Below are positions 1,250 to 19,211 of a stretch of DNA of 64,000 nt, piece after piece. How positions within the stretch are numbered: the stretch's first letter is position 1; every line of letters starts with the position of its first letter. A program made the translations under genes and the position numbers. This DNA is from an uncultured SAR86 cluster bacterium (lineage in GTDB: Bacteria; Pseudomonadota; Gammaproteobacteria; Magnimaribacterales; D2472): the NCBI GenBank assembly GCA_902608115.1, contig CACLMT010000003.1, forward strand, positions 40,302 to 104,301, given 5' to 3'. The notes below the pieces were generated by a model. It was not told the DNA's origin. It worked only from the letters and a program-made list of their open reading frames with translations, and ran no database searches.

Positions 1250-1757
1250 CTTTATGAGCCAATTTTCTTATCCAATCTTCACGCAAAAAACTATAGCAAA
1301 TTATATCTTGATATTTTAAGCCTTGTTTAGATTGCTCTCTGAGAACTCCCTCCTCAATAAAACCCAATTTTAAATGAAAATTTACAGATGCTTTATTAGA
1401 ACTTAGAGCTTGGCCACAAACTTTATCAAGATTTAATTTTTTAAAAGCATAATCAAGAGCGCTTAACCCCAATCTTGTGCCAGTTCCTTTAGGAGAATCT
1501 GGGGCTGAATAAAACCCCCAATTAGCCGAGGAGCTTTCAGGAATTATATTAAAATTTACATATCCTAATGGAACACCATCCTCTTCATAAATCATTGGAT
1601 ATTTATTAACATCTGATTGAATAGATTTAAACCAATCAGTATGTTCAGATAAAGATATCTCATGCTGTGTTAGCATGCTTCGACGAATAGATGGATGATT
1701 TCTCCATCTTAAAACGTTATCTAAGTCACTCTCCTCCATTGGTCTAATAATGCCCAT
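1242..1757 (-). CDS. pseH: GNAT acetyltransferase, PseH-like (UDP-4-amino-4,6-dideoxy-N-acetyl-beta-L-altrosamine N-acetyltransferase)
   Basis: The 171-aa ORF begins IRPMEESDLDNVLRWRNHPSIRRSM, typical of PseH. It has a GNAT core and sits between the pseG and pseI homologs, overlapping pseI by 8 nt. Confidence 0.7.
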   Translation of the reverse strand: MGIIRPMEESDLDNVLRWRNHPSIRRSMLTQHEISLSEHTDWFKSIQSDVNKYPMIYEEDGVPLGYVNFNIIPESSSANWGFYSAPDSPKGTGTRLGLSALDYAFKKLNLDKVCGQALSSNKASVNFHLKLGFIEEGVLREQSKQGLKYQDIICYSFLREDWIRKLAHKDV

Positions 1758-1759
1758 AA

Positions 1760-2812: not shown

Positions 2813-2815
2813 GAA

Positions 2816-3979: not shown

Positions 3980-3986
3980 TACTATC

Positions 3987-4829
3987 TTAAACCTCGGTTG
4001 AATGCTCTATGGGAAGTATCCGTCCGTGGTATTGCCCCATTTCATATGCATTATTTAGAATTAATAAATTATCATTAGTTACTATTTCTGTATTTTCTCT
4101 ATATTTTAAAGAAGCTCCTGTATATGTTTCATAATCAGTACAGGGTATCCAGCAATCTACTTTAAAATCAGATATTGCCTCAAGATTAATTTGAGATGAG
4201 CAGCTTTTTAGCAACATTTCATATGGGTTTAAACCATCATCTTTACCTAATTTGGGTTGAGCATAAAAATGGCCATAAGATTTTGGTTTCATAAGATAAT
4301 CACAGCCGACTAGAATTGCTTTTTTAAAACCTAAGCTTATTGCAAGTCCAATAGCTGCATATAAACCGCCAGCTAGATAACTAAATTCCGAACATATATC
4401 TAAGTAATTTGAATGAGGATCTCTTTTCCCAAAATGATGGAGATAATGAGTATTCTTTAATGGTGCACCTAACATATTTGTAAAACTAGTAAAAAGATTT
4501 AATTCTGGAAATTTTGCAATCTCAGATCTAAATAAATTACCCATAATATTCTTTTCATATTTTTGTTTATAAGGGTTTTTGAAATAATGATAAAACGAAA
4601 AAGGTTCTGGTAATGTATAACAACAAGTATCAAGAAGATAAAAATCTTTATGCAAAACTAGATGATTAATCCCAATGGTTGGATAATTAGTAAAATGTGA
4701 AAAGTCTATGCTTTTCAAGGAAGCTCCATTTCCAAAAATATAACAAGTTTGATCGATGAAACTATTCTTAAAAAGAAAGTTTCTTCTGAACACAGGCTCT
4801 AATGCTTTATGAAGCAAATTATTCTTCAT
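3987..4829 (-). CDS. Cst-II-like (GT42 / DUF115-like) putative nonulosonic-acid (sialyl/pseudaminyl) transferase
   Basis: In this 280-aa ORF, CYIFGNGASLKSIDFSHF...IGINH parallels Cst-II IIAGNGPSLKEIDYSRL...FRCNQ. YLAGGLYAAIGLAISLGFKKAILVGCDYL parallels ITSGVYMCAVAIALGYKEIYLSGIDFY. The Cst-II sequences are recalled. The gene is embedded between the acetamidino genes and pseC. Confidence 0.55.
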   Translation of the reverse strand: MKNNLLHKALEPVFRRNFLFKNSFIDQTCYIFGNGASLKSIDFSHFTNYPTIGINHLVLHKDFYLLDTCCYTLPEPFSFYHYFKNPYKQKYEKNIMGNLFRSEIAKFPELNLFTSFTNMLGAPLKNTHYLHHFGKRDPHSNYLDICSEFSYLAGGLYAAIGLAISLGFKKAILVGCDYLMKPKSYGHFYAQPKLGKDDGLNPYEMLLKSCSSQINLEAISDFKVDCWIPCTDYETYTGASLKYRENTEIVTNDNLLILNNAYEMGQYHGRILPIEHSTEV

Positions 4830-4844
4830 GATTTGTGAGTTTAG

Positions 4845-5495
4845 CTAAATATTTAAAAAATTTTTTAACATCTGTAAACCTATTTTTCCGCTTTTTTCTG
4901 GATGAAATTGGCAACCTATAACATTCTCAGATTGAATAACTGCCGGAATAAAATTATCTCCATACAAACAACCAGCAATTAAGTGTTTAGAATCTTCTGG
5001 CTGAGCCATGTAAGAATGAACAAAATATAGGGCAGAATCTTCTTTGGTGTCTTCCAAAAGAGTTCCCTTCCAACTAACTCCTTCTTCTTTGGGTTTAACT
5101 AAATTGTTCCAACCAATATGTGGAATTTTTAATTTACTACCATCTTTAGCATGAGAAGGAACAGCTGTAACTTTACCTGATATTAAACCTAAACCGTCTG
5201 TTAAACCAAATTCTTCGCTCTCATCAAGCAAAAACTGCATCCCCAAACATATTCCTAGCAAAGGTGTACCTTTAGAAGTTAAGTCATGAATTAAAGAAAT
5301 GAAATCTCTTTTATCTAATTCAGCCATCCCATCCGCAAATGCACCAACACCTGGTAAAACCACCCTATCAGATTGAAATATTTCTTCAGGGTCTCCAGTA
5401 ACTTTTACCAATGCATCGTTATATTCTAAACCTCTCCTTACACTTAAGAGGTTCCCTACACCATAATCTATGACTGTAACAGTTTTAAGCGTCAT
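4845..5495 (-). CDS. HisH-like glutamine amidotransferase subunit (WbuY-type, sugar acetamidino formation)
   Basis: The 216-aa ORF has VIDYGVGNL, GICLGMQ (catalytic Cys) and FHPEKS. It is paired with a HisF-like gene (11-nt overlap) inside a polysaccharide locus, not a his operon. Confidence 0.8.
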   Translation of the reverse strand: MTLKTVTVIDYGVGNLLSVRRGLEYNDALVKVTGDPEEIFQSDRVVLPGVGAFADGMAELDKRDFISLIHDLTSKGTPLLGICLGMQFLLDESEEFGLTDGLGLISGKVTAVPSHAKDGSKLKIPHIGWNNLVKPKEEGVSWKGTLLEDTKEDSALYFVHSYMAQPEDSKHLIAGCLYGDNFIPAVIQSENVIGCQFHPEKSGKIGLQMLKNFLNI

Positions 5496-6258
5496 ATTTT
5501 CTTACACCTATATCTGCTTTATTTGCCTCTTCTCTGATTAAATTAATTGTTGATCGCTCATAATGCAAAATATCAGCCATCGCAATTGCATCTGCTCCAC
5601 CTTCTTCAATTGCAAATCTAATATGCTCCTCAGACCCCATACCACCACTAGCTATAACCGGAATATTAACTGCATCGGTTATTTTTTTGATTAGATCAAT
5701 ATCAAAACCTTTTCTCGTACCCTCATAATCTATAGAAGTTAGTAAGATTTCTCCGGCACCTTGCTCCACGCCTTCTTTTGCCCAATCTACGACGTCTATT
5801 CCTGTTTTTTCTCTTCCAGAATCTGTGTAAACTTCCCACATAGTATCAGACTGTTTTTTAGCCTCGATTGATAAAACCATACATTGAGAGCCAAATCTCC
5901 TGGAAACTTCATTTATGAGGCTTGGTCTTTGAACTGCAGCAGTATTAATTGCCACTTTATCTGCTCCAGCTCTTAATAACTCTCTTACATCCTCAATGTT
6001 TCGAATTCCGCCTCCGACAGTTAAAGGGACAAAAACATTTTCTGCAGTTCTAGAAACTATTTCTGGTAATTTGCTCCTACCATATAAGCTTGCAACGATA
6101 TCAATATATATTAATTCATCAGCGCCTTGCTCATAATACTTTTTAGCATGCTCTTGTGGGTCTCCAATAACCCTTAGCCCCTCTAGATGAATTCCTTTAA
6201 TAAGATTTGGTCCTTTAATATCAAGCCTCGCTATTAATCGAACTTTCTTATGCTTCAT
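5485..6258 (-). CDS. HisF-like cyclase subunit (WbuZ-type acetamidino modification protein)
   Basis: The 257-aa ORF has RLDIKG, ADELIYIDI, TVGGGIR and ASGG, the TIM-barrel HisF motifs. Its context is the amidotransferase trio. Confidence 0.8.
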   Translation of the reverse strand: MKHKKVRLIARLDIKGPNLIKGIHLEGLRVIGDPQEHAKKYYEQGADELIYIDIVASLYGRSKLPEIVSRTAENVFVPLTVGGGIRNIEDVRELLRAGADKVAINTAAVQRPSLINEVSRRFGSQCMVLSIEAKKQSDTMWEVYTDSGREKTGIDVVDWAKEGVEQGAGEILLTSIDYEGTRKGFDIDLIKKITDAVNIPVIASGGMGSEEHIRFAIEEGGADAIAMADILHYERSTINLIREEANKADIGVRKYDA

Positions 6259-6265
6259 TTTTTTC

Positions 6266-7489
6266 TTAATCTAATCTTTTTTGATCATGCCAAACTGCTC
6301 TTTTTAAATTCCACTCATCTCCTTCCTTCTCCCAAAGATGAGGAGAGCGAAATTTATCAACAGTTTCATGGAACTCATCTTCAGTTAAAGAAATATATTC
6401 CAAAAATTCCTTAAAATATTTCTTTGGAAACTCTTCATCAAATTTCTTAACTAACTGCGCCCCTTCTTCTCTTGTAATTTTGTTATTTCTAATTTCTTGT
6501 GCAGCATCATAAGTTGCTCTACCAATACCAAATTTTACAAGTGTGGTGTAGTAATGAAACATATCTATACGGTCATCTATGCTGCTATATTTAGAATAAG
6601 TTCCTTCTGTTCTCTCAGTATTAGATTGAAATCCAGTATGCTCAGTAGCATAGTAGTAACATTCCTGAGGGTCCCATTTAAGGTAATAACCAAGATAATG
6701 AACCTCTACATTCTTTGATTCAAGATAATCTGCACTGGGAGGAATATAGGGTGCAAAATCATTTAAAGTAAAGTCAGTTTCCTCCAAGATATCTCTTATC
6801 TTCTTACCACCAAGAACAATATCAAGAGGATCACTAATCGAGAAAAACTTCCTATCCATTGTAGGAATATAATTATCATCTACATTATTTCCATATTCAG
6901 CTTGATTCTCACCATACATAACTAACTCAACACCAAACTTTGCTGCCATAGATGGTCCAATAATCCTCTGTCCAACAATAAAAGGCTGGAAAGGATGTAA
7001 AAGATTAATAAATGCTTGCTTAGTTAAATATCTATGAAGTCGTCCATTAGGTGTAAGCAACATGTTATCTAAGCCGCCCACATGAATCCAATTCTCAAAA
7101 TTCTTCCATCCAATTTCAGTATACTTATGAGGCGCCCAAGTTACCGTAAGAGGATTCATACCATATTTATATTTCAGTATATGAGATGTATACGCGCTAT
7201 CTTTACCTCCACTTCCAGGAATTACAATGTCATAACTTCCATCATGTTTCCTATACTTCTCACAGAGTTCAGCAAGGGTATCCTCCCTATCTTTCCAATT
7301 AATAGAATTCGCTTTAGTTTCCTGATAATGACAAGCAGCACAAACTCCATTATTGTCAAAACCTATGGTTGATTTTTTTTCATCTTTTGAATGCTTGAAT
7401 TCAACTGTAGAGCTTGGTCGCTGATTGGAGATTACACAGCGTTTGCAAAAAATAACCTCTGAAGGCAATCCAAAGAATGTATCTGTCAT
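6266..7489 (-). CDS. N-acetyl sugar amidotransferase (PP-loop family; WbuX/PseA-like)
   Basis: The 407-aa ORF has an N-terminal Cys-rich segment (CKRCV...CAACHY) and a PP-loop-like SGGKDS motif (PGSGGKDSAY). It lies immediately upstream of the HisF/HisH-like pair, like Cj1316c-1315c-1314c as recalled. Confidence 0.75.
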   Translation of the reverse strand: MTDTFFGLPSEVIFCKRCVISNQRPSSTVEFKHSKDEKKSTIGFDNNGVCAACHYQETKANSINWKDREDTLAELCEKYRKHDGSYDIVIPGSGGKDSAYTSHILKYKYGMNPLTVTWAPHKYTEIGWKNFENWIHVGGLDNMLLTPNGRLHRYLTKQAFINLLHPFQPFIVGQRIIGPSMAAKFGVELVMYGENQAEYGNNVDDNYIPTMDRKFFSISDPLDIVLGGKKIRDILEETDFTLNDFAPYIPPSADYLESKNVEVHYLGYYLKWDPQECYYYATEHTGFQSNTERTEGTYSKYSSIDDRIDMFHYYTTLVKFGIGRATYDAAQEIRNNKITREEGAQLVKKFDEEFPKKYFKEFLEYISLTEDEFHETVDKFRSPHLWEKEGDEWNLKRAVWHDQKRLD

Positions 7490-7595
7490 TTTATAGCTCC
7501 TTAAAAAAATACATTATACGTTTTTAAAATCTCTTAAAAATAATTTATTTCTTAAACAAATTTATTGCTGAAATAATTCTTAAGGCAAATCGATT

Positions 7596-8726
7596 TTAAT
7601 TAAGATCAACAAAAAATTTCTGCTTTGGCATATTCCAAAATTCTTTGTTATTAATTATTTCATAGAACTTCTGCGCACTATTACCATCACCAAAAATCAT
7701 AGACGGTTCATAATTTTTACCTTCAACACCTTGTATTGCTTGAGAAATATCATCTAAATTAAAGTCTGAGTCAGTAATACTGGGTAAAGATACTCTATTA
7801 TTCTGTCTAGAGCCTAAATTAATAGTTGGGACCCCAAAATGAGGGGCTTCTCTAACACCAGCACTCGAATTACCAATCATAAAGTCAGCATTTTGAAGCA
7901 ATTGCAAAAAATGCTCGAATCTCATTGATGGAAAAACTCTAAAATTTTTATGATTAGATAAGTTTTCATATGCATCAAAAATTATCTCTGAGCCATGATC
8001 ATTATTTGGATAGATTACAACATAGTTCTTCTTAGATTGAATTAATCCGTCAATTAGAATCTGAATATGATTTTTTAAATTATCCAATTCTGTTGTTACA
8101 GGATGAAAAATTGCGACTGCATAATTATCATAATCAATCTCATATCGTTTTTTTACTTCTTCTAATGAGGGTAAAGAACTTGAATTCATAATATCAATAT
8201 CAGGGGAGCCAATTACATATGTAGATTCTGTTCTCTCTCCTAACTGCAACAGCCTTTTTTGAGCATCTTCATTTGCTACAAAATGAGCATGAGATAATTT
8301 TGTTACAGCATGGCGAATAAGCTCATCTACTGTTCCAGAAACCTCTCCGCCCTCTATATGACCTGTTAAGACATTATTTAATGCTCCAACGGTTGCACCA
8401 GCTAATGCCTCTACTCGATCACCATGAACAATAATTAAATCTGGATTAATTTCTCTAACATAGTCTGATAAACCTAAAATTGATTTAGCTAATACATGAT
8501 CCATTCCATCTGAAACATTCTGATTTATAAATTTATGAATATTCTGAAAATTAGCTTTTTCAACTTCTTCACATGTATAACCATATTTAGCTAGCATATG
8601 CATGCCAGTAACAAAAACATGAAGCTGAAAGTTAATGTCGTCTTGAATAATTTTCATCAAAGACTTTAACTTTCCAAAATCAGCTCTAGTACCTGTAACA
8701 AAAATTATCTTTTTTTGATTTTGCAT
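7596..8726 (-). CDS. neuC: Hydrolysing UDP-N-acetylglucosamine 2-epimerase (NeuC/LegG family)
   Basis: The 376-aa ORF has IIFVTGTRADFGKLKSLM...VTGMHM...HGDR.E, the NeuC pattern. It lies adjacent to the neuB and neuA homologs. Confidence 0.8.
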   Translation of the reverse strand: MQNQKKIIFVTGTRADFGKLKSLMKIIQDDINFQLHVFVTGMHMLAKYGYTCEEVEKANFQNIHKFINQNVSDGMDHVLAKSILGLSDYVREINPDLIIVHGDRVEALAGATVGALNNVLTGHIEGGEVSGTVDELIRHAVTKLSHAHFVANEDAQKRLLQLGERTESTYVIGSPDIDIMNSSSLPSLEEVKKRYEIDYDNYAVAIFHPVTTELDNLKNHIQILIDGLIQSKKNYVVIYPNNDHGSEIIFDAYENLSNHKNFRVFPSMRFEHFLQLLQNADFMIGNSSAGVREAPHFGVPTINLGSRQNNRVSLPSITDSDFNLDDISQAIQGVEGKNYEPSMIFGDGNSAQKFYEIINNKEFWNMPKQKFFVDLN

Positions 8727-8727
8727 A

Positions 8728-9768
8728 TCACTTCTCTACATGAGATTTTGTCAATTGTTCGCCAGCTTTTATTGGGGCAAGGATCGGTTTACCAATTAAA
8801 TTTTCATAATCAGCTGCAGAGTAATCTCCTTCGCCTGGTCTACGCACCCATATATTTTCTTCACTTAATAACTCACCCCCTTCAATATCTTTTATTGCAA
8901 CGACTGAAGCAAAAGCAAACGCTATAGTTGCCTCCTCTTCGGGTACTGGGTGTTTGTCACCACCTCTTTCGGTAAAAAGGATTTTTGATCCATGAATTAA
9001 TTCAGATAAGGAATTAGGATCCATAGAGCATACAATATCTGGTCCCGGTCTATCTAATGAATCTGTAAAATGTCTCTCAAGGATAGATGCTCCTAAGGCG
9101 ACAGCGCCAAAGCATGCCAAATTGTCTGTTGTATGATCAGACAATCCAACCACTGCATCAGGAAACTCAGATTGTAAAACTTTCATTGCTCCCAGCCTTA
9201 CTAACTCTGGAGGAGTTGGATATATGTTTGTCGTGTGTAATAAAGCATATGGAATACTGAATTTACGTAAAATTTCAACTGCTGGTCTAATTGAATCAAT
9301 TGAATTCATTCCAGTGCTTAAAATAATTGGTTTACCTGATCTTGCAATATGTTTTATTAAGGGGTAATTATTGCATTCTCCGGAACCAATTTTATATGCA
9401 GGTACATTAAATCTTTCTAATCTATCAGCTGCGGCTCGTGAAAAAGGAGTGCTAATAAAAATACAATTTCTTGATTTAATGTGCTCCATTAAAACATGCT
9501 CTTCCTCTTCATTAAGAGCGCATCTAGCCATAATTTCATATATAGAAACATCCGCGTTACCAGGAACAACTTCTTTTGCCTCAGCTGACATCTCGTCCTC
9601 AACAATATGAGTTTGATGCTTTATAATTTCAGCTCCTGCTTCAATTGCTGCATCTGCCATTGAGATTGCTAGATCTAAACTACCCTCATGATTAATACCA
9701 ATCTCAGCTATTACAACAGGAGGATGATTGTCTCCTATTATTCTGTTATTAATTTTTATTTCAGGCAT
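8728..9768 (-). CDS. neuB: NeuB/LegI-family nonulosonic acid synthase (second NulO synthase in the locus)
   Basis: The 346-aa ORF has [30 protein letters not shown] and a C-terminal SAF domain. It is clearly a separate paralog from the PseI-type ORF at 185-1249. Confidence 0.8.
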
Positions 9769-9770
9769 TT

Positions 9771-10466
9771 TTACTTCCCCATTAAAGCTTCTGCTCTCTT
9801 TAAATCTTCTTTCTCATCTATATCAATACTATCATCTTCAGTCATTACAAAAGGCATGCTTCCATTAGAAGGAAAACCTTTTCTATCAAGAAAATCTTCA
9901 ATTGAAAAAATATATATAGCACCATTAGGTATATACACATCTTGAAGGTCTTGCCTTCGAGCATTTGATAGCTTTTCTTCAAAGAGCGATTCCAACCGTC
10001 CAGAATTTGAAATAATGAATGACTTAAATGGAGATTTCCTCATATGCATAACACTGATAAGTGATTCTTCTTTATTCTCAAGTAAGCTCATTATGGCTTT
10101 ATCAATGTGTTTAGAATTACGTAAAGGTGAAGTTGGCTGAAGATAAACAATAAAATTATTCTTATGATTAATATTTTTTGGAAGAGAATCAATAAAATGA
10201 TTAACCACGTCTATTGCTGAAGATTCATCGGTAGCAAATTCTACTGGTCTTAAGAGTGTTTTTGCTTTTAATGAATCAGCCAATGATAGCACTCTTAAAT
10301 CATCTGAAGACACCCATACCTCACCTATCAAAGAAGAATGAAGGGCTGCATGAATAGTATGTTGTACCAAAGGCTTACCATTAAGATTGAGCATGTTTTT
10401 GTCTATTAAACCTTTTGAACCCTTTCTTGCAGGAATAAGGCCTATAAAGCTTGATCTAGAAGTCAT
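9771..10466 (-). CDS. neuA: Acylneuraminate (nonulosonate) cytidylyltransferase, NeuA/LegF/PseF family
   Basis: The 231-aa ORF starts with the [15 protein letters not shown] motif of CMP-NulO synthetases. Its start overlaps the upstream ABC gene stop as ATGA. Confidence 0.8.
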
Positions 10467-12256
10467 GTGATAGTTTTGTTTTGATTGATTATTTCTTCAT
10501 ATGATCCAACTCGAAGAATTTTACCCTGATCTAATTCAATAATATGTGTACAACTTTCTAACGTAGTTAATCTATGAGCTACAATAATTAAGGTTAATTC
10601 TTGACCAAGGTTTCTGATTGCATCCATTACTACTTTTTCTGTTTCGTTATCTAGAGAGCTAGTTGCTTCATCAAAAACTATAATATTTGCCTTTTTATAC
10701 AATGCTCTAGCAATACCAATTCGCTGTCTTTGCCCGCCACTTAGTCTAACCCCTCTTTCACCAACTACTTCCTGATATCCATTTGGTCTATTGTCAATAA
10801 AATCTGAAATCATTGCTTTTTTAGCCGCATCTTTCACTCTAGACATATCAATTTTTTCTGGCATAACTCCAAATGCAATATTTTCTGCTATTGATGTATC
10901 AGCTAAGAAAATACTTTGAGGGACATGGGCTACTGTCTGACGCCACGCTCTAATTAAACTATCATCAATCTTTTGGTTATCTACTATTAGTTCTCCATTC
11001 GTTGGTTCTAGCAAACCCATAATTAAATCAAGTGTTGTGCTCTTACCACTTCCAGTGCTTCCTATTAACCCAATTCTTGAACCCTTTTTAATTTCTAAAG
11101 AAATATTATCTAAAACCAATGGGGTAATTTCACTATAACGAAAACTTAAATTACGAACTGAGAACGAATCTTTAATCTCTAATGGTTGGGGCTCATTTTC
11201 ATAATAGTACTGAGGAAAAGGTTGATCAAGGAGTTCTACAACATCATTGAGGGCTGCATGACTACCAGCTACTAATGACCAATTACCATAAATCTGTTGC
11301 ATTAATGGAAGTAATCTTTGAGCTCCTAGTGCTAACATACCCAATAGGGGAAGAGCTGCTGTAACACCTCCTGATCTATTAGTTAAAGCTAATACAAAAA
11401 TCGCTATCAATACCATTCCCAATGATTCCATTGCGTATCTGGGTGCCTGATTCATAAATCTATTTTCACCATTTGCTTTCATTAAAAGAAGAATCGCTTT
11501 TCTATAAATGCCAGTATAAATACGCTGAGTAGCATCTAAAATTACATCTCTAATTGCACCTAAACCTTCCTGCAAGGCTTTAACTACTTGAGTTTGTTGA
11601 GATGCAATTGATCTGCTATTTAACTCAAATCTTTTACTAGTTAAAAATGCAATTACGACATATGCAGACCCAAAGCTTAGACCCGCAACAATGGTAACTA
11701 ATGGATCAACAATCAACATTGTCATCATAATTGACATAAATAAAAAAGAAGACGTAATAATGGAAGTAACAGCTAACAAAACACCAGTCGCAGCGGTAAC
11801 CTTTTGAGTTATCCCGCTAATAATTTCACTGCTACTCCTCTCTATATGAACTTTAAATGGCTGATACAAAGTTCTTTCATAAACTTCAATACTTAAATCT
11901 GCTCCAGTCGCATTAGAGAGCTTTATGCTAACCCACAATAATAATAACCTTAAAGATCCAGCAATAATTGCCGCTAATCCAAAAGCAACAGTCAGTGGCA
12001 ATATAAGCTGATCACCGGAATTAATACCAAAAAAAATAATAAAATCTGCAAGCCATGGTGATTGAAAAACTTGCTCCGGCTGAGTAAGAATTCCAATAAA
12101 TGGAAGTACGGCACCTAAACTTGCAACTTCGGCGACAGAAGCAACCAATGTTAATATCAATAAGAAAATAAAATGTATTTTTCTTCTCTTACCAATATGG
12201 GTCCAAAGATCTTTAAATAACTTTGTTAATGAATTGTGGTTAATATTTTTGTTCAT
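10463..12256 (-). CDS. ABC exporter, fused permease/ATPase (MsbA-type half transporter)
   Basis: The 597-aa ORF has six predicted N-terminal TM helices, Walker A GSTGSGKST, the signature LSGGQRQR and Walker B IIVFDEATS. Confidence 0.85.
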   Translation of the reverse strand: MNKNINHNSLTKLFKDLWTHIGKRRKIHFIFLLILTLVASVAEVASLGAVLPFIGILTQPEQVFQSPWLADFIIFFGINSGDQLILPLTVAFGLAAIIAGSLRLLLLWVSIKLSNATGADLSIEVYERTLYQPFKVHIERSSSEIISGITQKVTAATGVLLAVTSIITSSFLFMSIMMTMLIVDPLVTIVAGLSFGSAYVVIAFLTSKRFELNSRSIASQQTQVVKALQEGLGAIRDVILDATQRIYTGIYRKAILLLMKANGENRFMNQAPRYAMESLGMVLIAIFVLALTNRSGGVTAALPLLGMLALGAQRLLPLMQQIYGNWSLVAGSHAALNDVVELLDQPFPQYYYENEPQPLEIKDSFSVRNLSFRYSEITPLVLDNISLEIKKGSRIGLIGSTGSGKSTTLDLIMGLLEPTNGELIVDNQKIDDSLIRAWRQTVAHVPQSIFLADTSIAENIAFGVMPEKIDMSRVKDAAKKAMISDFIDNRPNGYQEVVGERGVRLSGGQRQRIGIARALYKKANIIVFDEATSSLDNETEKVVMDAIRNLGQELTLIIVAHRLTTLESCTHIIELDQGKILRVGSYEEIINQNKTIT

Positions 12257-13293
12257 TATGATCTTATCTTAAAATTCCAAGCTGAACTGCACATCTCTTC
12301 TACCCCCTTTGTTGCAATCCATTTAAATGCTTGGGCGGATCGATGCACATCTGCATAACAGCTAGCCACATCTCCAGGTCTTCTAGATGCAAATTTATAT
12401 GGGATCTTTACATTATTAACTTCTTCAAAGGTACGTATTAACTCTAAAACGCTACAACCTTTCCCAGTACCAATATTAAAAATATGAAATCCTGCTTTGG
12501 CAATTGAAGAAAGCTCAATATCTTCATGATTAATTACTTTCAACCCTATATAATTTAATGCTAATAGATGAGATTCTGATAAATCCATAATATGGACATA
12601 ATCTCTAACTCCAGTCCCATCAATTGTGTCGTAATCATTACCGTAAATATTAATATGTGGTAATTCTCCATTGGCTACATTTACAATATGCGGCATAAGA
12701 TTATTAGGTATGCCTCGAGGGTTTTCTCCAATTAGCCCACTTTCATGAGCTCCAACTGGATTAAAGTACCTAAGACAAACAATCTTCCATCCATCCTCTG
12801 CTTCTGAGATACTTCTAAGCTCTTCTTCAATTTTTAGCTTTGTTTCTGCGTATGGATTATTGCTCGATAATGGATGCTTCTCATCTATTGGCAAGTACCT
12901 TGGAATTCCATATACAGTTGCACTACTGCTATAAATTAAATTTTTAACTCCAAAAGATCTCATCACAGAAAGCAAGCATGATGTACCATTGCAGTTATTC
13001 TTAAAGTACTCATTCGGCTTAAGAATTGATTCAGATACTGATTTTAAAGCAGCCAAATGAATCACTGCATCAAAACTATGTTTTGTAAAAATTCTGTTTA
13101 ACTCGGTTTCATCAGATATATTACTTTGATAAAAAGTAATTTTCCTACCCATTAAATTCTCTAAATCATCAATAGACTCTGAGCTGCTATTGGAGAAATT
13201 ATCTATTATTACAACATCATGCCCACTATCTAGTAAAAGAAAAGCAATATGAATGCCGATATATCCAGCTCCGCCAGGTATTAAAAAATTCAT
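12256..13293 (-). CDS. galE: UDP-glucose/UDP-GlcNAc 4-epimerase (GalE family SDR)
   Basis: The 345-aa ORF has GGAGYIG, SSSATVYG and YAETK (YxxxK), and is GalE-like over its full length. Confidence 0.8.
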   Translation of the reverse strand: MNFLIPGGAGYIGIHIAFLLLDSGHDVVIIDNFSNSSSESIDDLENLMGRKITFYQSNISDETELNRIFTKHSFDAVIHLAALKSVSESILKPNEYFKNNCNGTSCLLSVMRSFGVKNLIYSSSATVYGIPRYLPIDEKHPLSSNNPYAETKLKIEEELRSISEAEDGWKIVCLRYFNPVGAHESGLIGENPRGIPNNLMPHIVNVANGELPHINIYGNDYDTIDGTGVRDYVHIMDLSESHLLALNYIGLKVINHEDIELSSIAKAGFHIFNIGTGKGCSVLELIRTFEEVNNVKIPYKFASRRPGDVASCYADVHRSAQAFKWIATKGVEEMCSSAWNFKIRS

Positions 13294-13336
13294 TTAATTA
13301 AGCTGTTTAAACTTGAGGTTATAGACTGAACTAAAA

Positions 13337-14245
13337 CTAATCTATCTTTCTAAACAAATAATGGTTTGTTAGGATAAAAAATATGCTGAGCATGAATCCT
13401 ATAAATGTTCCGGCTATACAAATCATTGACCTAACAGGCGCAGATTTCTTTTCAGGCACATAAGCTGAATCAAGAGGCCGTAGAAGATAGTCTTTACGAA
13501 CATTTGCAAGCATTTCAGTTTCAAGTTGAGATTGAATTAATGCGTTGATTGAATTTCTTATATCTGCAACCCTATATATATTAAGTTGATCATTCAAATA
13601 TGTCTTTGATCTTTGAGCCTCAGCAATATCCCTATTTCTTTCAATATTGTTTAATTCATTAATAATCAAATCTAAAAAAGACTTTGCAAAATATGGTGAT
13701 TGGTGTTCTACGCTGATTGCCAAGAACCCTGTATCAATATCAATAAAAACATCTACTATTGAAAGAAATTTTTTATACACTTCATTTTCAGAAGGTAAAT
13801 TAACTAACCATTTTTGATCAGTTGTGTCATAAATTTCCTCATCAAAATTTATAGATTTGGATGCTGGATCGTATCCCTTCAAAGCCATTAATGCCGGAAG
13901 CACCCCATCAAAAGATGAAATATGCTTTACAAAATCTCTAGATCTTATGGTGTGCTTTGCAAGATCTGCTTTTTCATCTGTACCTCCACCTGATCCTAGG
14001 TTCACTCCAGCCAAAGCCGCTATACTTCCAAATTGAGAATTAGTGGATACTGTGCTTCCACTTGAACCTGCCACTTTTAAAACTACATCTGATTTATATA
14101 TATTTGGCAAGGACAATGAATAGAAAACAGAGCTTACAGCAAAAATAAATGAGATGATTATAATTAATCTCTTCTTTTCCCATACGATTGAGAATAATTC
14201 ACTAAGATTTATTTCATCATTGCTAGAGGCGGCATTATTTGACAT
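13337..14245 (-). CDS. wzz: Polysaccharide chain-length determinant (Wzz/PCP family)
   Basis: The 302-aa ORF has the N-terminal Wzz motif (INLSELFSIVWEKKRLIIIISF..., TM1), a periplasmic coiled region and a C-terminal TM (ICIAGTFIGFMLSIFFIL). Confidence 0.7.
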   Translation of the reverse strand: MSNNAASSNDEINLSELFSIVWEKKRLIIIISFIFAVSSVFYSLSLPNIYKSDVVLKVAGSSGSTVSTNSQFGSIAALAGVNLGSGGGTDEKADLAKHTIRSRDFVKHISSFDGVLPALMALKGYDPASKSINFDEEIYDTTDQKWLVNLPSENEVYKKFLSIVDVFIDIDTGFLAISVEHQSPYFAKSFLDLIINELNNIERNRDIAEAQRSKTYLNDQLNIYRVADIRNSINALIQSQLETEMLANVRKDYLLRPLDSAYVPEKKSAPVRSMICIAGTFIGFMLSIFFILTNHYLFRKID

Positions 14246-14300
14246 TTTTTATGGCTCCTAATTAATATTTCTTATCGATTTTATCATGAACATTAATCAT

Positions 14301-14387
14301 TGGTGCCCAGAGCCGGACTTGAACCGGCACGAAGTTGCCTTCGAGGGATTTTAAGTCCCTTGTGTCTACCAATTCCACCACCTGGGC
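14301..14387 (-). tRNA. tRNA-Leu (anticodon UAA), class II with long variable arm, CCA encoded
   Basis: The reverse complement is GCCCAGGTGGTGGAATTGGTAGACACAAGGGACTTAAAATCCCTCGAAGGCAACTTCGTGCCGGTTCAAGTCCGGCTCTGGGCACCA. It has anticodon loop CTTAAAA and T-loop GGTTCAAGTCC, and is close to E. coli leuZ as recalled. Confidence 0.9.
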
Positions 14388-14411
14388 AAAATATAAAGTT
14401 TAAATCCTCCA

Positions 14412-14485
14412 TGGAGGCTGAAGCCGGAATCGAACCGGCGTAAACGGCTTTGCAGGCCGCTGCATAACCACTCTGCCATCCAGCC
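14412..14485 (-). tRNA. tRNA-Cys (anticodon GCA), CCA encoded
   Basis: The reverse complement is GGCTGGATGGCAGAGTGGTTATGCAGCGGCCTGCAAAGCCGTTTACGCCGGTTCGATTCCGGCTTCAGCCTCCA. It has anticodon loop CTGCAAA and T-loop GGTTCGATTCC. Confidence 0.9.
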
Positions 14486-14539
14486 ACTGCGTGATTATAG
14501 CAAAGCATTACTGATTTTAACTGAAACAATGGAACTTAA

Positions 14540-14887
14540 TTAAATTAAATTATTTTTATCTTCTTCCGCCTTTAAGGCTTCAATTTCAGTCTTAAGAGCC
14601 TCATATTCTTTCTCTTTTCTTTCAATAAAACTTTGCGTAATTTTCAATTTTTCACTTAAACCTGATGGGGTCAAAATATAGGCATAATTTTTTTTATTTT
14701 TAGCATTCTTGAAATTCTCAAACTTTAAAAATCCAACCTCTATCAATTGATTAACAACATAATTTACCTTTCCTAAACTGAATTTTGTTTGATCAGCAAT
14801 ACTTCTTTGATTTGAAATATCTGATTTACTAATTACATCCAAAACTTTGAATTTAGTTTCTATATCTATTTTCGTTTTATCGTTCAT
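14540..14887 (-). CDS. MarR-family EPS-associated transcriptional regulator (small winged-helix plus C-terminal coiled coil)
   Basis: The 115-aa ORF contains NQRSIADQTKFSLGKVNYVVNQLIEVGFLKFENF...NYAYILTPSGLSEK...EKEYEALKTEIEALK. This matches the MarR_EPS family pattern as recalled. Confidence 0.7.
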   Translation of the reverse strand: MNDKTKIDIETKFKVLDVISKSDISNQRSIADQTKFSLGKVNYVVNQLIEVGFLKFENFKNAKNKKNYAYILTPSGLSEKLKITQSFIERKEKEYEALKTEIEALKAEEDKNNLI

Positions 14888-14935
14888 AAAAAGTGAGGTT
14901 TGTGATTGTTTTTTAAAGAAAGTAGCTAAGAATTA

Positions 14936-14947
14936 ACAGCTACCGCA
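14936..14947 (-). promoter_or_regulatory. ops-like element (candidate RfaH recruitment site) in the locus leader
   Basis: The minus strand reads TGCGGTAGCTGT, against E. coli ops GGCGGTAGCGTG (GGCGGTAGnnTG). Positions 2-9 (GCGGTAGC) are identical. It is in the sense orientation, 82 nt downstream of the RfaH-like stop and 49 nt upstream of the MarR-EPS start. Confidence 0.35.
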
Positions 14948-14965
14948 GAACAAAGGTACTTGTTT

Positions 14966-14994
14966 GTTCAACGTTGTACTGTTCAATGTTGTAC
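14966..14994. repeat. Two tandem 14-bp near-palindromic direct repeats (candidate operator pair)
   Basis: GTTCAACGTTGTAC (14966-14979) and GTTCAATGTTGTAC (14981-14994) are 13/14 identical with a 15-bp period. The first is a palindrome apart from one mismatched pair, around an AACGTT core. They lie in the 141-bp rfaH-like/marR-like intergenic leader. Confidence 0.45.
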
Positions 14995-15028
14995 ATTGTG
15001 AAGATTTATATAAATTAGTCAAGTTTTT

Positions 15029-15532
15029 TTATTTCTTTGAGATAATACTAGTGTCTACCTGAATGGTATGAGCTCTATTTAATAAAGAAAAGAGGATTTC
15101 AACCCTTTGCTCAGATATTGTCGCTGTAATGATTGCTTCCTGATCTTTTAAAGGCCCAGTAAGAATTTCTATAAATTCTCCGATTCTGTAAGACTCTTTG
15201 TTTGGATTATTAATGGATTCAAGCTCCACTTCTTTAAAAGACTGAATGACTTGATTATCAAGAACAGGATACTTGTCTCCAAAACGGATGATCTTAATCA
15301 CTCCTCGAGTAGATCTCACTGGTTTTATCTCTAGGTTGGGTTCTGATTTAAGAAATGCATAACCAGGAAACATAGCTTGTTTTTTTATTACTGTTTTGGT
15401 CTTGGATAATAGACTGGAATGTAAAACTGGAAAATAGGGTTCATATCCCTGATTTAAAAGATTTTCCTCTGCTCTTTTTCCTTCCTTGGGCTTGATATTT
15501 AAAACAAGCCAACCAAATTGTAATAATGACAT
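15029..15532 (-). CDS. RfaH-like NusG paralog (NGN + KOW) transcription antiterminator
   Basis: The 167-aa ORF has an NGN-like N-terminus (WLVLNIKPKEGKRAEENLLNQGYEPYFPV...FPGYAFL) and a KOW-like C-terminus (IGEFIEILTGPLKDQEAIITA...RVEILFSLLNR). It is not in the secE-nusG-rplK context and sits at the head of a polysaccharide locus. Confidence 0.7.
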   Translation of the reverse strand: MSLLQFGWLVLNIKPKEGKRAEENLLNQGYEPYFPVLHSSLLSKTKTVIKKQAMFPGYAFLKSEPNLEIKPVRSTRGVIKIIRFGDKYPVLDNQVIQSFKEVELESINNPNKESYRIGEFIEILTGPLKDQEAIITATISEQRVEILFSLLNRAHTIQVDTSIISKK

Positions 15533-15538
15533 CTTCTA

Positions 15539-16093
15539 TTATTCGCTTTCTTCATTTTTTAAGTTAAATGAATTTAAAGTATATTGAAGCCCTGTTAATA
15601 AACTAATAATTAGGGCAAAAAACAAAAAGAAATCTGAGATAAATAATAAGAATGCATTTCCCAGGAATAGGGCTAAAAGGTAAAATGAAACTACAAACAT
15701 CAGTATAGAAGTTTTTATTTTGGCTAATAAAGTTACTTTTGTTCTATCAGATTGAGATAAGCGTGCATTAAACTCTCTGATTCCGTTAACCCAAATATCT
15801 CTTGAAATCATTAAAGCGCCCACAAAAGCAATGAATGCACTATTAAGCTCAATTGCAAGTGCAAATAAGAGAAAAATTATAATAATTTTATCTGAAATGG
15901 GATCTAAAATTTCCCCTATAACCGATGTAGCATCATACTTTCTTGCGAAATAACCATCTAAGTAATCGCTAATAGCAACAAAGAAAAACAAGAGCAGTGC
16001 AAAACCAAATAACTGAAAAAATACAATTAAAATAAATATCAGAGGTGCAAAAATAATTCTGCTAACTGTGAGAAAAGTAATAAATTTTTCCAT
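15539..16093 (-). CDS. pgsA: CDP-diacylglycerol--glycerol-3-phosphate 3-phosphatidyltransferase
   Basis: The 184-aa membrane ORF carries the CDP-alcohol phosphatidyltransferase motif DGYFARKYDATSVIGEILDPISDK and follows uvrC as in E. coli. Confidence 0.85.
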   Translation of the reverse strand: MEKFITFLTVSRIIFAPLIFILIVFFQLFGFALLLFFFVAISDYLDGYFARKYDATSVIGEILDPISDKIIIIFLLFALAIELNSAFIAFVGALMISRDIWVNGIREFNARLSQSDRTKVTLLAKIKTSILMFVVSFYLLALFLGNAFLLFISDFFLFFALIISLLTGLQYTLNSFNLKNEESE

Positions 16094-16096
16094 GTC

Positions 16097-17884
16097 TTAT
16101 TTTAATCCCTGTTGAATACGTTCGCATAATTTTTTATTTACTCCTTTAACTAACATTAGATCTTTAGAAGAAGCATTTTTTATATTTTTTATATTTTTAT
16201 ACTTTTTTATAAGTCTTCTTTTCATTACAGGTCCAATTCCTTCAATCAAATTTAAAGCAGAATATTTAGTTTCTTTATATTTCTTTTTTCGGGAATTTTT
16301 TAAAGCAAAACGATGCGATTCATCTCTCACTTGTTGCAATAATCTAAATCCGCCGCTCTCCTTGGGCATTTCTATCGTGCCTTTTTGAGAGAGAATAGTC
16401 TCAGTAGCACGCACTCTTTTTAAACCCTTTACAATACTTAATACGATTGGTAAATTTGCCTTCATTGAGTTAAAAACATTTAAGGCAGTATTTAGTTGCA
16501 AATTACCGCCATCTATCAAAATAATATCTGGCAAAGGGTTACTTTTTATTTTGAGAATTCTTTTATTTAAAGCGTATTCTAAAGAGCCTGTATCATTACC
16601 TGATAGTTCAGCGGGAATGTTATATGTTCGATAGAATTTTTTATCTGGACCTCCTTCATTAAACCGAATGCATGAAGCAACTGCATTGGTTCCTGATAAG
16701 TGACTGATATCATATCCCTCAATAGTTAAATTTTGCTTTTTAACACCTAAAATATTTTTTAAATCTAAAACTGCATGAAGATATCTATCTGATACTTTAG
16801 TTTTATTTTCAATGATTTGCTTGGCATTAAGAATTGATAATTTAGATAATTGCTTTGCTGCTACAGGCACTCTAGAAGAAATAGGAATAGATTCATTAAA
16901 TTTTATTTCTATGGCTTGTTTTATTAAAAATAAATTATTTGGTTTAAAGGTTAATAAAATTTTATCAGGAAGCGAAAAAGAATTTTGATAATAAGAAAAA
17001 ATTAAGCTTTGGAGAATTTGATCCATTTCCTTGGAATAATCATCTTTAAAGTAATATGTTTTTGTACCTCTAATCTTCCCTTCCCTTACAGATAAAATAC
17101 ATGCACCAGTTCGACCATGAATAATGATGCAAGAAAAAAAATCAACACTTGTAAGATGGCTATTAAAAGATTGCTCTTGATGTAAAACATCCAAAGTAGA
17201 AAGTCTTTTTTTTATATCATTTGCTTTCTCAAAATTTTGTTGATCAGCATATTTTTTCATTTGCAATAGCATTGATTTTTTTGCCTTATCTCCTGAAGAA
17301 GAAACGTAGTGCTTAGCAAAAGAAATATCATCTTTATAATTAGTTTCTGAAATTAAACCGACACATGGTCCAGAACATCTCTTCATTTGATATTCGATAC
17401 AGGGTCTAGACCTATTACTAAAAGTGCTATCACTACAATTTCTTATATTATAAATTTTTTGTAGATCCTTGATTGTTCTCTTCACAGCATGAGCGCTAAT
17501 AAAAGGTCCAAAATGATTTTTTGAAACTGCATGTTTAGAACGCTTCATGCTGATACTAGGAAATTGATGATCCATTGAAAAATGAATATATGGATATGTC
17601 TTATCATCCCGTAGAAGAATATTGAAGCGAGGTAAATTTTCTTTAATCAAAGACTGCTCTAATAATAATGCATCAGCTTCAGTTTGCGTTGAAAAAGTCT
17701 CAATTTTATCTGTAAGAAGTTTTATTTTCTGCGTCTTTCTATCCTTTATAGATTGACCAAAATATGAAGAAACTCGAGTTTTTAAATTTTTTGCTTTACC
17801 AATATAAATAATTTTATTATTAGAAAAAAATTTATAAATTCCTGGAGTTTTGGGAATTTGTTTTAAATTAAGCTCCATTCTCAC
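16097..17884 (-). CDS. uvrC: Excinuclease ABC subunit C
   Basis: The 595-aa ORF has a GIY-YIG N-terminus (PGIYKF...IIYIGKAKNLKTRV), a UVR domain, an endonuclease V-like domain and a C-terminal (HhH)2. Confidence 0.9.
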   Translation of the reverse strand: MRMELNLKQIPKTPGIYKFFSNNKIIYIGKAKNLKTRVSSYFGQSIKDRKTQKIKLLTDKIETFSTQTEADALLLEQSLIKENLPRFNILLRDDKTYPYIHFSMDHQFPSISMKRSKHAVSKNHFGPFISAHAVKRTIKDLQKIYNIRNCSDSTFSNRSRPCIEYQMKRCSGPCVGLISETNYKDDISFAKHYVSSSGDKAKKSMLLQMKKYADQQNFEKANDIKKRLSTLDVLHQEQSFNSHLTSVDFFSCIIIHGRTGACILSVREGKIRGTKTYYFKDDYSKEMDQILQSLIFSYYQNSFSLPDKILLTFKPNNLFLIKQAIEIKFNESIPISSRVPVAAKQLSKLSILNAKQIIENKTKVSDRYLHAVLDLKNILGVKKQNLTIEGYDISHLSGTNAVASCIRFNEGGPDKKFYRTYNIPAELSGNDTGSLEYALNKRILKIKSNPLPDIILIDGGNLQLNTALNVFNSMKANLPIVLSIVKGLKRVRATETILSQKGTIEMPKESGGFRLLQQVRDESHRFALKNSRKKKYKETKYSALNLIEGIGPVMKRRLIKKYKNIKNIKNASSKDLMLVKGVNKKLCERIQQGLK

Positions 17885-19211
17885 GAAGATATTTTTTTGT
17901 ATAAATCTTTCCTGATCTCACGCCAAATTGATCAAAAGGATTAATTTGTAGCATTACTGAAGTTATAAATGTTCTGTGCTCCCAAGTTGCAATTAAATAT
18001 CCTAAAGTAAAAGGATCTAATTTCTTTAGTAAAAACAGATTTACAGGAACATCTCCATTTATTTTTTCTGATTCTTGCAATAAATCATCAGCTCCAGAAG
18101 ACAATAATTTTGCCTGAGTAATAGCCTGAGCATAAGCTAGACTACTTGGATCCTCCTGAACGGCAAGAATATCTGCACAAATATTTTGTGTGCCCTGATG
18201 AAGTAATTGAAAATATGAATGTTGGGCTGTAGGTCCATAGCCTCCAAATATTATTTGACCAGTCGCTTTGAATTCAGAATTCTTGTTTGGTTGCTTTCCT
18301 AAAGACTCCATCTCAAGTTGCTGAACATAATCTGCAAATGATCTTAATCTCCAGCTATATGATAAAACTGCTCTAGTTTTCTTGCTTTTAACATTGTTGA
18401 GCCAGATATCTGAGAAAGACAATCTTTTTAAAAATCCTAAATAATCTTGGTCTTTGACGAGATCTTTGTCAGCTCTAGCCCCACCTTCAAGAAAGCTTTC
18501 AAAGGCAGAGTCGCCCATTTTTATATTGGCTGGATATGATGCACAAGACCATATTGAATATCTTCCACCTATTTCAGGTTCTAATTCAATAATTTTAAGA
18601 AAATTATATTGCTCTGCTGCTTTAGGGTTTGCAGTAATGGCAGCAAAATTCTTTGGATCTCCAGACCACTCTAATGCATATTTTAAACTTTCAAGAGTCT
18701 CATCGGTAGTAAATGATTTTGAGACAACAAAGAAAAATGTTTTTTCTTTTATTAAATCAAAGTTATTTAATTTAAACCTAATTTCTTCAGGATCTGATCC
18801 CGTAATAAATATTGGATCTCTAGGAGTTTCATTAGTAGAATCTACATCTCTTTTATTTAAATTAATATTAAAACATTCTGTTAATAATTTTGTGCCCTCG
18901 AACGAACCACCAATACCAAGAACAACAATCTCCCATCCCAAATCTGAATTAATCCTTGAATCTATAAGATCCATGCTCTTTGGATAATGCTTCTTTAAGT
19001 TTCTTACTTGACTATGAATGGCTGATTGATCCTCTGATAAATTGACTTTTTCACCATTCAAAAGATCGTCTATTTGTTTAGAAAGGTTAAGTTTTTTAGC
19101 CGTTAAATCAAATTCCTGAAATAACTTTTCTGAAAAATCATTCATATAAGCTTCATAACTCAATATGTCATTTTCAAAGGTTTTAAAATCTACAAAAAGT
19201 TTTTTATTCAT
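17868..19211 (-). CDS. pgi: Glucose-6-phosphate isomerase (short ~450-aa type)
   Basis: The 447-aa ORF has IGIGGS, SKSFTT.ET, GGRYS.WS and QLLHQG motifs. Confidence 0.85.
   Translation of the reverse strand: MNKKLFVDFKTFENDILSYEAYMNDFSEKLFQEFDLTAKKLNLSKQIDDLLNGEKVNLSEDQSAIHSQVRNLKKHYPKSMDLIDSRINSDLGWEIVVLGIGGSFEGTKLLTECFNINLNKRDVDSTNETPRDPIFITGSDPEEIRFKLNNFDLIKEKTFFFVVSKSFTTDETLESLKYALEWSGDPKNFAAITANPKAAEQYNFLKIIELEPEIGGRYSIWSCASYPANIKMGDSAFESFLEGGARADKDLVKDQDYLGFLKRLSFSDIWLNNVKSKKTRAVLSYSWRLRSFADYVQQLEMESLGKQPNKNSEFKATGQIIFGGYGPTAQHSYFQLLHQGTQNICADILAVQEDPSSLAYAQAITQAKLLSSGADDLLQESEKINGDVPVNLFLLKKLDPFTLGYLIATWEHRTFITSVMLQINPFDQFGVRSGKIYTKKYLRENGA

Follow-up and report, generated by a model that had tools for sequence, protein, structure and literature searches.

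An RfaH-like gene, an ops-like element and a MarR_EPS gene with a predicted operator ahead of a SAR86 surface-polysaccharide locus

SAR86 is a clade of marine Gammaproteobacteria that is known here from metagenomes and metagenome-assembled genomes (MAGs) only, and whose surface glycans probably affect the interactions with phages and grazers. To our knowledge, nothing experimental is known about the control of these glycans, and our search of the open-access literature on SAR86 glycans found no relevant paper. The question is raised in a tangible form by a stretch of 64,000 nucleotides (nt) from an uncultured SAR86 cluster bacterium (GenBank assembly GCA_902608115.1, contig CACLMT010000003.1, positions 40,302 to 104,301), hereafter the window, in which a gene for a NusG paralog of 167 amino acids (aa) and a gene for a 115-aa MarR-type protein stand ahead of a long string of polysaccharide genes. 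Do these two genes control the string, and if so, by what means? An earlier inspection of the same DNA (the original prediction) had taken them for an RfaH-like antiterminator and a MarR-type regulator associated with exopolysaccharide, and had compared them with the UpxY/UpxZ pair of Bacteroides. We propose, with moderate confidence, that RfaH/ops elongation control would be combined with an autoregulated MarR_EPS repressor ahead of this surface-polysaccharide locus. The signals in question lie in the 141-nt spacer between the two genes, the control elements of which were absent from the original prediction.

The coordinates, sizes and strand given earlier for both open reading frames (ORFs) proved exact. 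The control region consists of the following features, in the direction of transcription:

15029 to 15532, minus strand: rfaH-like gene, 167 aa, ATG start, NGN and KOW domains
between 15029 and 14887, minus strand: 141-nt spacer between the rfaH-like and marR_EPS genes
14995 to 15022, minus strand: sigma-70-type promoter-like site, TTGACT, 16-nt spacer, CACAAT
14980 to 14995, minus strand: predicted MarR_EPS box 1, TGTACAAcaTTGAACA, 1 mismatch to the palindrome TGTTCAA-N2-TTGAACA
14965 to 14980, minus strand: predicted MarR_EPS box 2, AGTACAAcgTTGAACA, 2 mismatches, in tandem with box 1
14944 to 14973, minus strand: leader hairpin 1, CGT-TGAACAAA ... TTTGTTC-T-GCG
14936 to 14947, minus strand: ops-like element, TGCGGTAGCTGT, positions 2-9 same as in E. 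coli ops, including the C3-G8 core
14911 to 14944, minus strand: terminator-like hairpin 2, GGTAGCTgttaattcTTAGCTACT (hairpin 14921-14944), then TTCTTT
14540 to 14887, minus strand: marR_EPS gene, 115 aa, ATG start

The 167-aa protein scored 46.5 bits with the Pfam NusG/NGN model (cutoff 22.2), and its gene stands next to uvrC and pgsA, outside the secE-nusG-rplK context, as had been claimed; no other NusG-family ORF was found within the window. The best NCBIfam model was RfaH (TIGR01955, 108 bits, E 4.4e-31), followed at a distance of more than 50 bits by UpxY (52.2 bits), LoaP (39.1) and NusG (37). The cutoffs of the UpxY model NF033644 (100) and of the LoaP model (125) were both missed, and the top sequence matches in PDB were the crystal-structure chains of E. 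coli RfaH, aligned with residues 7-154. Going by the hidden Markov model scores, on which the subfamily placement rests, the protein is an RfaH-type specialised NusG paralog and not a housekeeping NusG. It is termed RfaH-like here because it stays outside the curated RfaH equivalog in the strict sense.

Residues were mapped onto E. coli RfaH with the roles taken from Zuber et al. 2018 (PMC5995543) and from Wang et al. 2020 (mBio, PMC7593976). At the seven ops-contacting positions K10, R16, H20, R23, Q24, T72 and R73, the window protein carries K14, R20, N24, N27, Q28, T75 and R76, respectively, and all of these save the R23 position are invariant across the clade. F56, responsible for tight RNA polymerase binding, corresponds to F60, F81 to F84 and I93 to I96, and L145-I146-N147 to L150-L151-N152; this LLN stands where NusG has the Rho-binding IFG loop (I164-F165-G166), which is thus lost. 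K14, R20, Q28, T75, R76, F60, F84, I96, L151 and N152 were invariant in 24 clade members. The original prediction had named grouping with housekeeping NusG, or a lack of RfaH residues, as the points to check: RfaH turned out to be the best family, and the equivalents of K10, R16, Q24, T72, R73, F56, F81 and I93 are kept along with LLN. In its autoinhibited state, RfaH has an alpha-helical KOW domain, which can refold to a beta-barrel. At the interface positions E48, I93 and F130, the window protein has Q52, I96 and I135; about half of the clade members carry E at the first of these positions, as judged by eye from the alignment.

The ops element of E. coli is GGCGGTAGCGTG, in which C3, G4, G5, T6, A7 and G8 are needed for the recruitment of RfaH, and T11 and G12 act via pausing (Zuber et al. 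2018, PMC5995543). The SAR86 site was located via the 8-mer core GCGGTAGC, present at 14939-14946 as a single copy in the window (0.15 expected), about 50 nt past the promoter, after a small hairpin and on the non-template strand. A search with the 12-mer at up to 3 mismatches gave chance-level matches and was abandoned; the true site has 4 mismatches, all in the flanks. The 8-mer was found once each, in the spacer between the rfaH-like and marR_EPS genes, in 13 homologous loci and in 20 spacer variants. Differently from JUMPStart leaders, the SAR86 leader has no match to the Rfam JUMPstart model at E <= 10 in 13000-16500, nor to any other Rfam family; 12 other MarR_EPS loci likewise matched no Rfam family in the leader, JUMPstart included, at the gathering threshold.

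From the -35 hexamer to GCGGTAGCTAT, the leader was nearly invariant in 20 distinct SAR86-type spacers, with both promoter hexamers kept, even though identity among the RfaH-like proteins falls to 47%; the 3' side of the spacer varies freely. Because of this variation in the 3' part, the conserved unit is considered to be the promoter, the repeats, hairpin 1 and GCGGTAGC, and not the terminator-like structure. The repeats form a tandem 15-nt direct repeat at 14965-14994 of the minus strand, and the two predicted boxes that they comprise are the two best palindrome matches in the entire window. Together they overlap the -10 hexamer and the likely start site, and the first T of box 1 is also a base of the -10 hexamer, as in betaproteobacterial loci. 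Box 2 was invariant in the SAR86 variants, which were themselves retrieved with a 17-mer inside box 2. Hairpin 1 takes in the 3' half of box 2 and, at its other end, the first three ops-like bases; it was predicted for each of the 19 leader variants, at -5.4 to -8.4 kcal/mol, and its stem bases are invariant and offer no covariation. A hairpin starting in ops was present in about two thirds of the 19 variants and a T-rich tail in just five of the 19, and hairpin 2 was rejected as a conserved attenuator on account of this lineage variability.

The second protein is what its earlier description said, a MarR-type regulator associated with exopolysaccharide loci: it passed the cutoff of the MarR_EPS equivalog TIGR04176 (116.2 bits, cutoff 88) and its gene lies among those for a polysaccharide, in keeping with the name of the family. 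Its AlphaFold2 (AF2) model (mean pLDDT 80.7) has a winged helix-turn-helix followed by a single C-terminal helix of 40 residues, without the N-terminal dimerisation helix of classical MarR proteins, and the top Foldseek matches were MarR-family cores (E 2e-5, TMq ~0.6). The modelled winged helix with the long C-terminal helix fits a DNA-binding dimer. It should be added that Foldseek also returned the archaeal Sso10a-2, and that the weaker NCBIfam matches included the archaeal Sta1 and Lrs14 families.

To place these features in the context of the family, a genome collection was scanned with a MarR_EPS alignment, which yielded 80 species-level loci, mostly of Alpha-, Beta- and Gammaproteobacteria, along with a few records labelled as other phyla. 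In 57 of the 80 loci, the 7-mer GCGGTAG was present on the strand that encodes MarR_EPS, at most 450 nt upstream and usually 30-110 nt before the gene, as compared with about 3 expected from the background rate in those same loci. As GCGGTAG precedes so many of them, MarR_EPS is typically the first gene past an ops element. The full canonical 12-base ops was present in many betaproteobacterial loci and in the metagenomic locus L018; the alphaproteobacterial flavour was GTGCGGTAGCC(T/G)(G/T). The SAR86 element is a divergent member of this set of ops elements preceding MarR_EPS genes.

Two further observations concern the element itself. Sub-cutoff RfaH-like proteins (approximately 100-108 bits; L039, L092 and the window) go with the ops flavour GCGGTAGC(T/C)AT, and cutoff-passing RfaHs mostly with GGCGGTAGCGTG, with one exception, L066, standing beside TGCGGTAGCCTG; this may be a protein-DNA co-variation, seen in few cases. 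Moreover, betaproteobacterial (TGCCG..CGGCA), alphaproteobacterial (GCCC..GGGC) and SAR86 (GAACA..TGTTC) leaders have a short hairpin whose end is immediately 5' of ops, as seen at 14944-14973 of the window and in the leaders of L023, L028, L030, L037 and others. The base of this hairpin is about 11 nt from ops position 11, which is reminiscent of hairpin-stabilised pauses.

Enrichment of k-mers in the 300 nt upstream of MarR_EPS in the same 80 loci revealed TGTTCAA as the sole strongly enriched 7-mer that does not belong to ops (32 loci vs 1.9 expected). Its context is the palindrome (T/C)GTTCAA-N2-3-TTGAAC(A/G). The form TGTTCAA-N2-3-TTGAACA was detected at up to 2 mismatches in 31 of the loci (0.006 expected per locus) and at up to 3 mismatches in 51 (0.06 expected per locus, ~5 in total). 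Many loci have it next to a -10-like hexamer or overlapping with one, e.g. TACAATGTTCAA or TAGAATGTTCAA. Of the 38 loci that carry both the palindrome and ops, 36 have the palindrome first, at a median of 84 nt from ops. A Nitrosomonadales MAG (L088, 6001-6960) and a Pseudohongiellaceae MAG (L095, 6001-6945) have the order marR_EPS, rfaH, ops; here the palindrome is still ahead of marR_EPS, and a canonical ops follows the rfaH gene. The palindrome thus tracks the MarR_EPS gene rather than ops, since it is kept where ops lies past both regulators. The simplest reading of this phylogenetic footprinting is that MarR_EPS would bind the palindrome as a dimer and repress its own promoter, from which the ops leader would also be transcribed.

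The linkage of an RfaH-type gene in cis to a polysaccharide locus, as originally proposed, held in every SAR86-type locus fetched. The exact 167-aa protein and its relatives down to 47% identity were found only in marine metagenomes and MAGs, the closest locus in the genome collection being that of a SAR86 MAG (L020). Every longer contig fetched had the gene order uvrC, pgsA, rfaH-like, marR_EPS, a gap of ~300 nt, wzz, galE, ABC, neuA, neuB and neuC. Loci L003-L015 keep both the close linkage to pgsA and the order of the genes as far as neuC. The survey of co-occurrence suggested in the original prediction found an RfaH gene within 6 kb in 19 of the 80 MarR_EPS loci, and the remaining 61 were without a NusG paralog in that range. 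Nor is the pair confined to this streamlined lineage, for RfaH stands beside MarR_EPS also in Beta-, Alpha- and other Gammaproteobacteria. Those of Beta- and Gammaproteobacteria pass the RfaH cutoff with 152-171 bits, and the alphaproteobacterial neighbours L039 and L092 (102-104 bits) are similar in score to the SAR86 protein.

What lies on either side of the control region is given below:

17868 to 19211, minus strand: pgi
16097 to 17884, minus strand: uvrC
15539 to 16093, minus strand: pgsA
14494 to 14502, minus strand: extended -10 TGCTATAAT of a putative tRNA promoter, 8 nt before mature tRNA-Cys
14412 to 14485, minus strand: tRNA-Cys (GCA)
14301 to 14387, minus strand: tRNA-Leu (UAA)
14278 to 14286, minus strand: extended -10-like motif TGATAAAAT, between tRNA-Leu and wzz
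13337 to 14245, minus strand: wzz-like chain-length determinant gene, at the head of the polysaccharide string, ribosome-binding site TAGGAG (strong)
185 to 13293, minus strand: 13 polysaccharide and nonulosonic-acid genes after wzz, the presumed target of the control region

From wzz to position 185, the string comprises 14 ORFs on one strand and exceeds 14 kb. Both regulator genes share this strand, in agreement with the earlier description; they are not immediately upstream of it, as tRNA-Cys, tRNA-Leu and promoter-like elements intervene before wzz. On the other side, only 6 nt part the pgsA stop from the start of the rfaH-like gene (3-9 nt, or an overlap, in relatives), and the latter is therefore probably the last gene of the uvrC-pgsA unit.

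The 13 genes after wzz include galE, a PglK/MsbA-like ABC exporter and neuA/B/C-like, WbuX/Y/Z-like and pseC/G/H/I-like genes. Two genes for NeuB-type synthases are present in the window (8728-9768 and 185-1249), accompanied within 185-10466 by neuA/neuC-like and pseC/G/H-like genes and by hisH/hisF paralogs; the locus would probably produce more than one nonulosonic-acid derivative, or a modified one.

The sequence of events that we favour would then be as follows. The RfaH-like protein would be co-produced with the housekeeping uvrC and pgsA genes. Dimeric MarR_EPS would bind the tandem boxes and repress its own promoter, giving a negative feedback on which a ligand might act. RNA polymerase that has left this promoter would be captured at GCGGTAGC by the RfaH-like protein, and the modified polymerase would transcribe marR_EPS, continue through tRNA-Cys, tRNA-Leu and the spacer, and then read wzz and the string of more than 14 kb, resisting Rho-dependent polarity. 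Transcripts started at the tRNA and wzz promoters would be RfaH-free and prone to polarity and would provide basal, promoter-proximal expression alone. Transcription of the cluster would in this manner be layered, with only those polymerases that come from the MarR-controlled promoter past ops carrying the RfaH-like factor across it.

Several observations weigh against this reading. The 167-aa protein remains under both RfaH equivalog cutoffs (TIGR01955, 108 vs 144.5; NF006534, 82.3 vs 124). Two residues of the pocket for T6 are replaced (H20 to N and R23 to N), and the HTT motif is EIK. The AF2 model, confident for the NGN domain, is uninformative on the KOW domain (pLDDT <50 at residues 131-159), and confidence in this C-terminal domain was too low to tell its helicity, i.e. 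the autoinhibited state. At the DNA level, the T11-G12 pause dinucleotide is missing (the window has TGT at the 3' end, most SAR86 variants have TAT), and hairpin 2, the 5' arm of which (GGTAGCT) is the 3' half of ops, resembles a weak terminator directly after ops. Further downstream, there are the near-invariant tRNA promoter, the conserved extended -10-like motif before wzz, and a TATAAT followed by AAGGAG in the 106-nt gap 7490-7595, just before a 407-aa WbuX-like ORF. As regards the first of the replaced residues, N at position 20 is also usual in the cutoff-passing RfaHs found beside MarR_EPS and canonical ops, and the change is for this reason not disqualifying.

The promoter-like elements lead to the best surviving alternative, according to which the leader and the sugar genes are separate units: ops would serve just marR_EPS, perhaps boosting the tRNAs, the sugar genes would use promoters of their own, and the RfaH-like protein would have little effect there or act elsewhere in the genome. 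We regard this as rather unlikely. The block AATGCTTTGnTATAAT before tRNA-Cys was identical in 18 of 19 variants; the claim of a tRNA promoter is limited to the extended -10, as the TTGACT considered for a -35 in relatives lies 20 nt from the -10 (manual count). Past tRNA-Leu, a match to TGnTAnn(A/T)T was present at 14-20 nt in 10 of 13 variants, and the other three had the -10-like hexamers TAGAAT, TAAAAT or TATAAT, so that TGATAAAAT represents a probable independent wzz promoter. The element in 7490-7595 is probably an internal promoter, and the 14-kb string may not be one transcription unit. With these tRNA, wzz and internal promoter-like elements, the sugar genes could be transcribed independently of ops.

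Ribosome-binding sites speak in the same direction, the strong site of wzz being rare in this genome: Shine-Dalgarno motifs were missing ahead of most genes in 12256-19211, and the clear exceptions with a full GGAG-type site were wzz and the WbuX-like ORF, both downstream of a promoter-like element. The lack of such a motif before marR_EPS, considered as a mark of RfaH-assisted ribosome loading, was rejected on the same grounds, as most genes here likewise lack it. Separate units would also agree with the history of the region. E. coli (L158, 2662-3663) has the order uvrC, pgsA, tRNA-Gly, tRNA-Cys, tRNA-Leu, and the pgsA-tRNA neighbourhood common to both is probably ancestral. In SAR86, the rfaH-like gene, the leader and marR_EPS stand in the place of tRNA-Gly, the sugar genes start right past tRNA-Leu, and the gap of ~300 nt holds both tRNAs wherever its sequence was read. 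It would seem from this that an ancestral tRNA operon received insertions on either side, and the regulators and the sugar genes may have come separately.

Against separate units stands the absence of a stop between them. A terminator scan of 13200-16200 returned just hairpin 2 and one site inside galE; none was found between hairpin 2 and wzz, including the interval from the marR_EPS stop to the tRNA -10. The two downstream spacers are AT-rich, and by eye no obvious GC-rich hairpin was seen in them. Read-through from the ops leader through the tRNAs into wzz and the cluster is plausible, because no terminator was found; on this evidence, the odds of it are roughly even. Furthermore, all SAR86-type loci fetched, including those with an RfaH identity as low as 47%, share the order from rfaH through ops, marR, the tRNAs, wzz, galE and ABC to neuABC. 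In other lineages, ops and MarR_EPS directly head the sugar genes, and in L018 MarR_EPS belongs to the sugar operon, as it overlaps the first sugar gene by 4 nt. Finally, a lone gene of 350 nt would need no RfaH-type processivity factor.

Very improbable, in our view, is a hierarchy like that of UpxY/UpxZ, in which the paralog antiterminates its own locus and the small partner blocks the antiterminators of competing loci, resulting in one glycan at a time. The analogy drawn in the original prediction has a superficial likeness in its favour, as in both cases a specialised NusG paralog and then a small second gene head a capsule-type or other glycan locus, and a weak UpxY match was indeed obtained. 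This match is far under its cutoff, the RfaH score being twice as high, and the NusG subfamily differs. The gene for the SAR86 paralog precedes the promoter instead of opening the operon. Its partner is predicted to be a winged-helix protein of DNA-binding type and not an UpxZ-type antagonist; an UpxZ-type family was not among its NCBIfam or Pfam matches at E <= 0.01. Since a palindromic operator is conserved at the promoter of the partner itself, its role would be autoregulation and not antagonism of foreign antiterminators; moreover, most MarR_EPS loci do without a nearby NusG paralog. A second locus of this kind was not found in the window, where thus neither a multi-locus hierarchy nor an invertible promoter is apparent. 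The search for the latter gave just short AT-rich chance inverted repeats, and the suggestion that the system might be switchable found no support in any invertible or other switch element there.

That GCGGTAGC is incidental, being the 5' arm of an intrinsic terminator that closes the uvrC-pgsA-rfaH unit while the NusG paralog needs no specific DNA signal, can draw on the terminator-like hairpin 14944-14921 with its TTCTTT and on the chance occurrence of the 8-mer in 15 of 100 shuffles of the window, and is nevertheless most doubtful, as the 8-mer is invariant in 20 variants where the 3' arm and T-tract are not, the hairpin lies downstream of a conserved promoter and cannot serve the upstream unit alone, and GCGGTAG precedes MarR_EPS in unrelated species far above expectation.

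RfaH/ops control, the reading that we prefer, may be compared with the E. coli and Salmonella system of JUMPStart leaders (lipopolysaccharide, capsule, haemolysin and tra). As in that system, the protein best matches RfaH models, and the C3-G8 core lies past a promoter and before the first ORF of a long polysaccharide unit. Apart from the protein features listed above, the differences are that the rfaH gene of E. coli is unlinked to its targets whereas the SAR86 gene adjoins its presumed target; that the ops flanks differ, with T at position 1 and TGT or TAT for GTG; that the first gene after ops is a regulator; and that two tRNA genes lie inside the presumed unit.

A pairing of this kind has also been noted before. 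Outside the enterobacterial cluster, RfaH genes lie near genes of envelope biogenesis, and within the set CL2-CL8, those of CL4 adjoin a helix-turn-helix regulator and those of CL7 are part of exopolysaccharide operons of Shewanella (Wang et al. 2020, PMC7593976). The SAR86 gene resembles these, standing likewise beside polysaccharide genes and a helix-turn-helix regulator. The main text of that survey does not name the regulator and mentions neither MarR nor SAR86, and the sections consulted describe neither an ops site nor an operator for those loci. Our searches of the open-access literature found no characterised MarR_EPS member, no operator and no link of the family to ops, RfaH or JUMPStart. 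The family is defined by sequence and context alone, and its associations with ops and with the palindrome come from the present survey.

RfaH/ops control of a long polysaccharide unit is thus a known kind of system, here with a co-located factor and a family-typical regulator. What is new is the resolved architecture of the control region in the window and, family-wide, that MarR_EPS genes carry a palindromic box at the promoter and usually come directly behind ops. A more far-reaching possibility, to which we give somewhat less than even credence, is that promoter, palindrome at the start site, hairpin, ops and marR_EPS as the first gene after ops form, together with RfaH, one conserved and previously undescribed cassette across Proteobacteria. 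If so, RfaH-modified transcription would be required for making the repressor, and the resulting feedback loop would set the output of exopolysaccharide. In its SAR86 form the operator would be doubled, a divergent RfaH would be encoded at the locus and paired with a matching variant of ops, and two tRNA genes would be embedded in the unit; RfaH-type protection of this untranslated tRNA segment would be part of the design.

Within 1 kb, the locus brings together an antiterminator, the site at which it would load, and a feedback repressor along with the operator predicted for it, which makes it a compact model open to testing. Pairs of natural ops variants and divergent RfaHs are useful for understanding the evolution of non-template-strand recognition. 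The RfaH/ops paradigm is extended to environmental lineages, and current understanding is not overturned by it; the MarR_EPS family, in turn, gains two checkable properties, the predicted operator TGTTCAA-N2-3-TTGAACA and the position of its gene as the first after ops.

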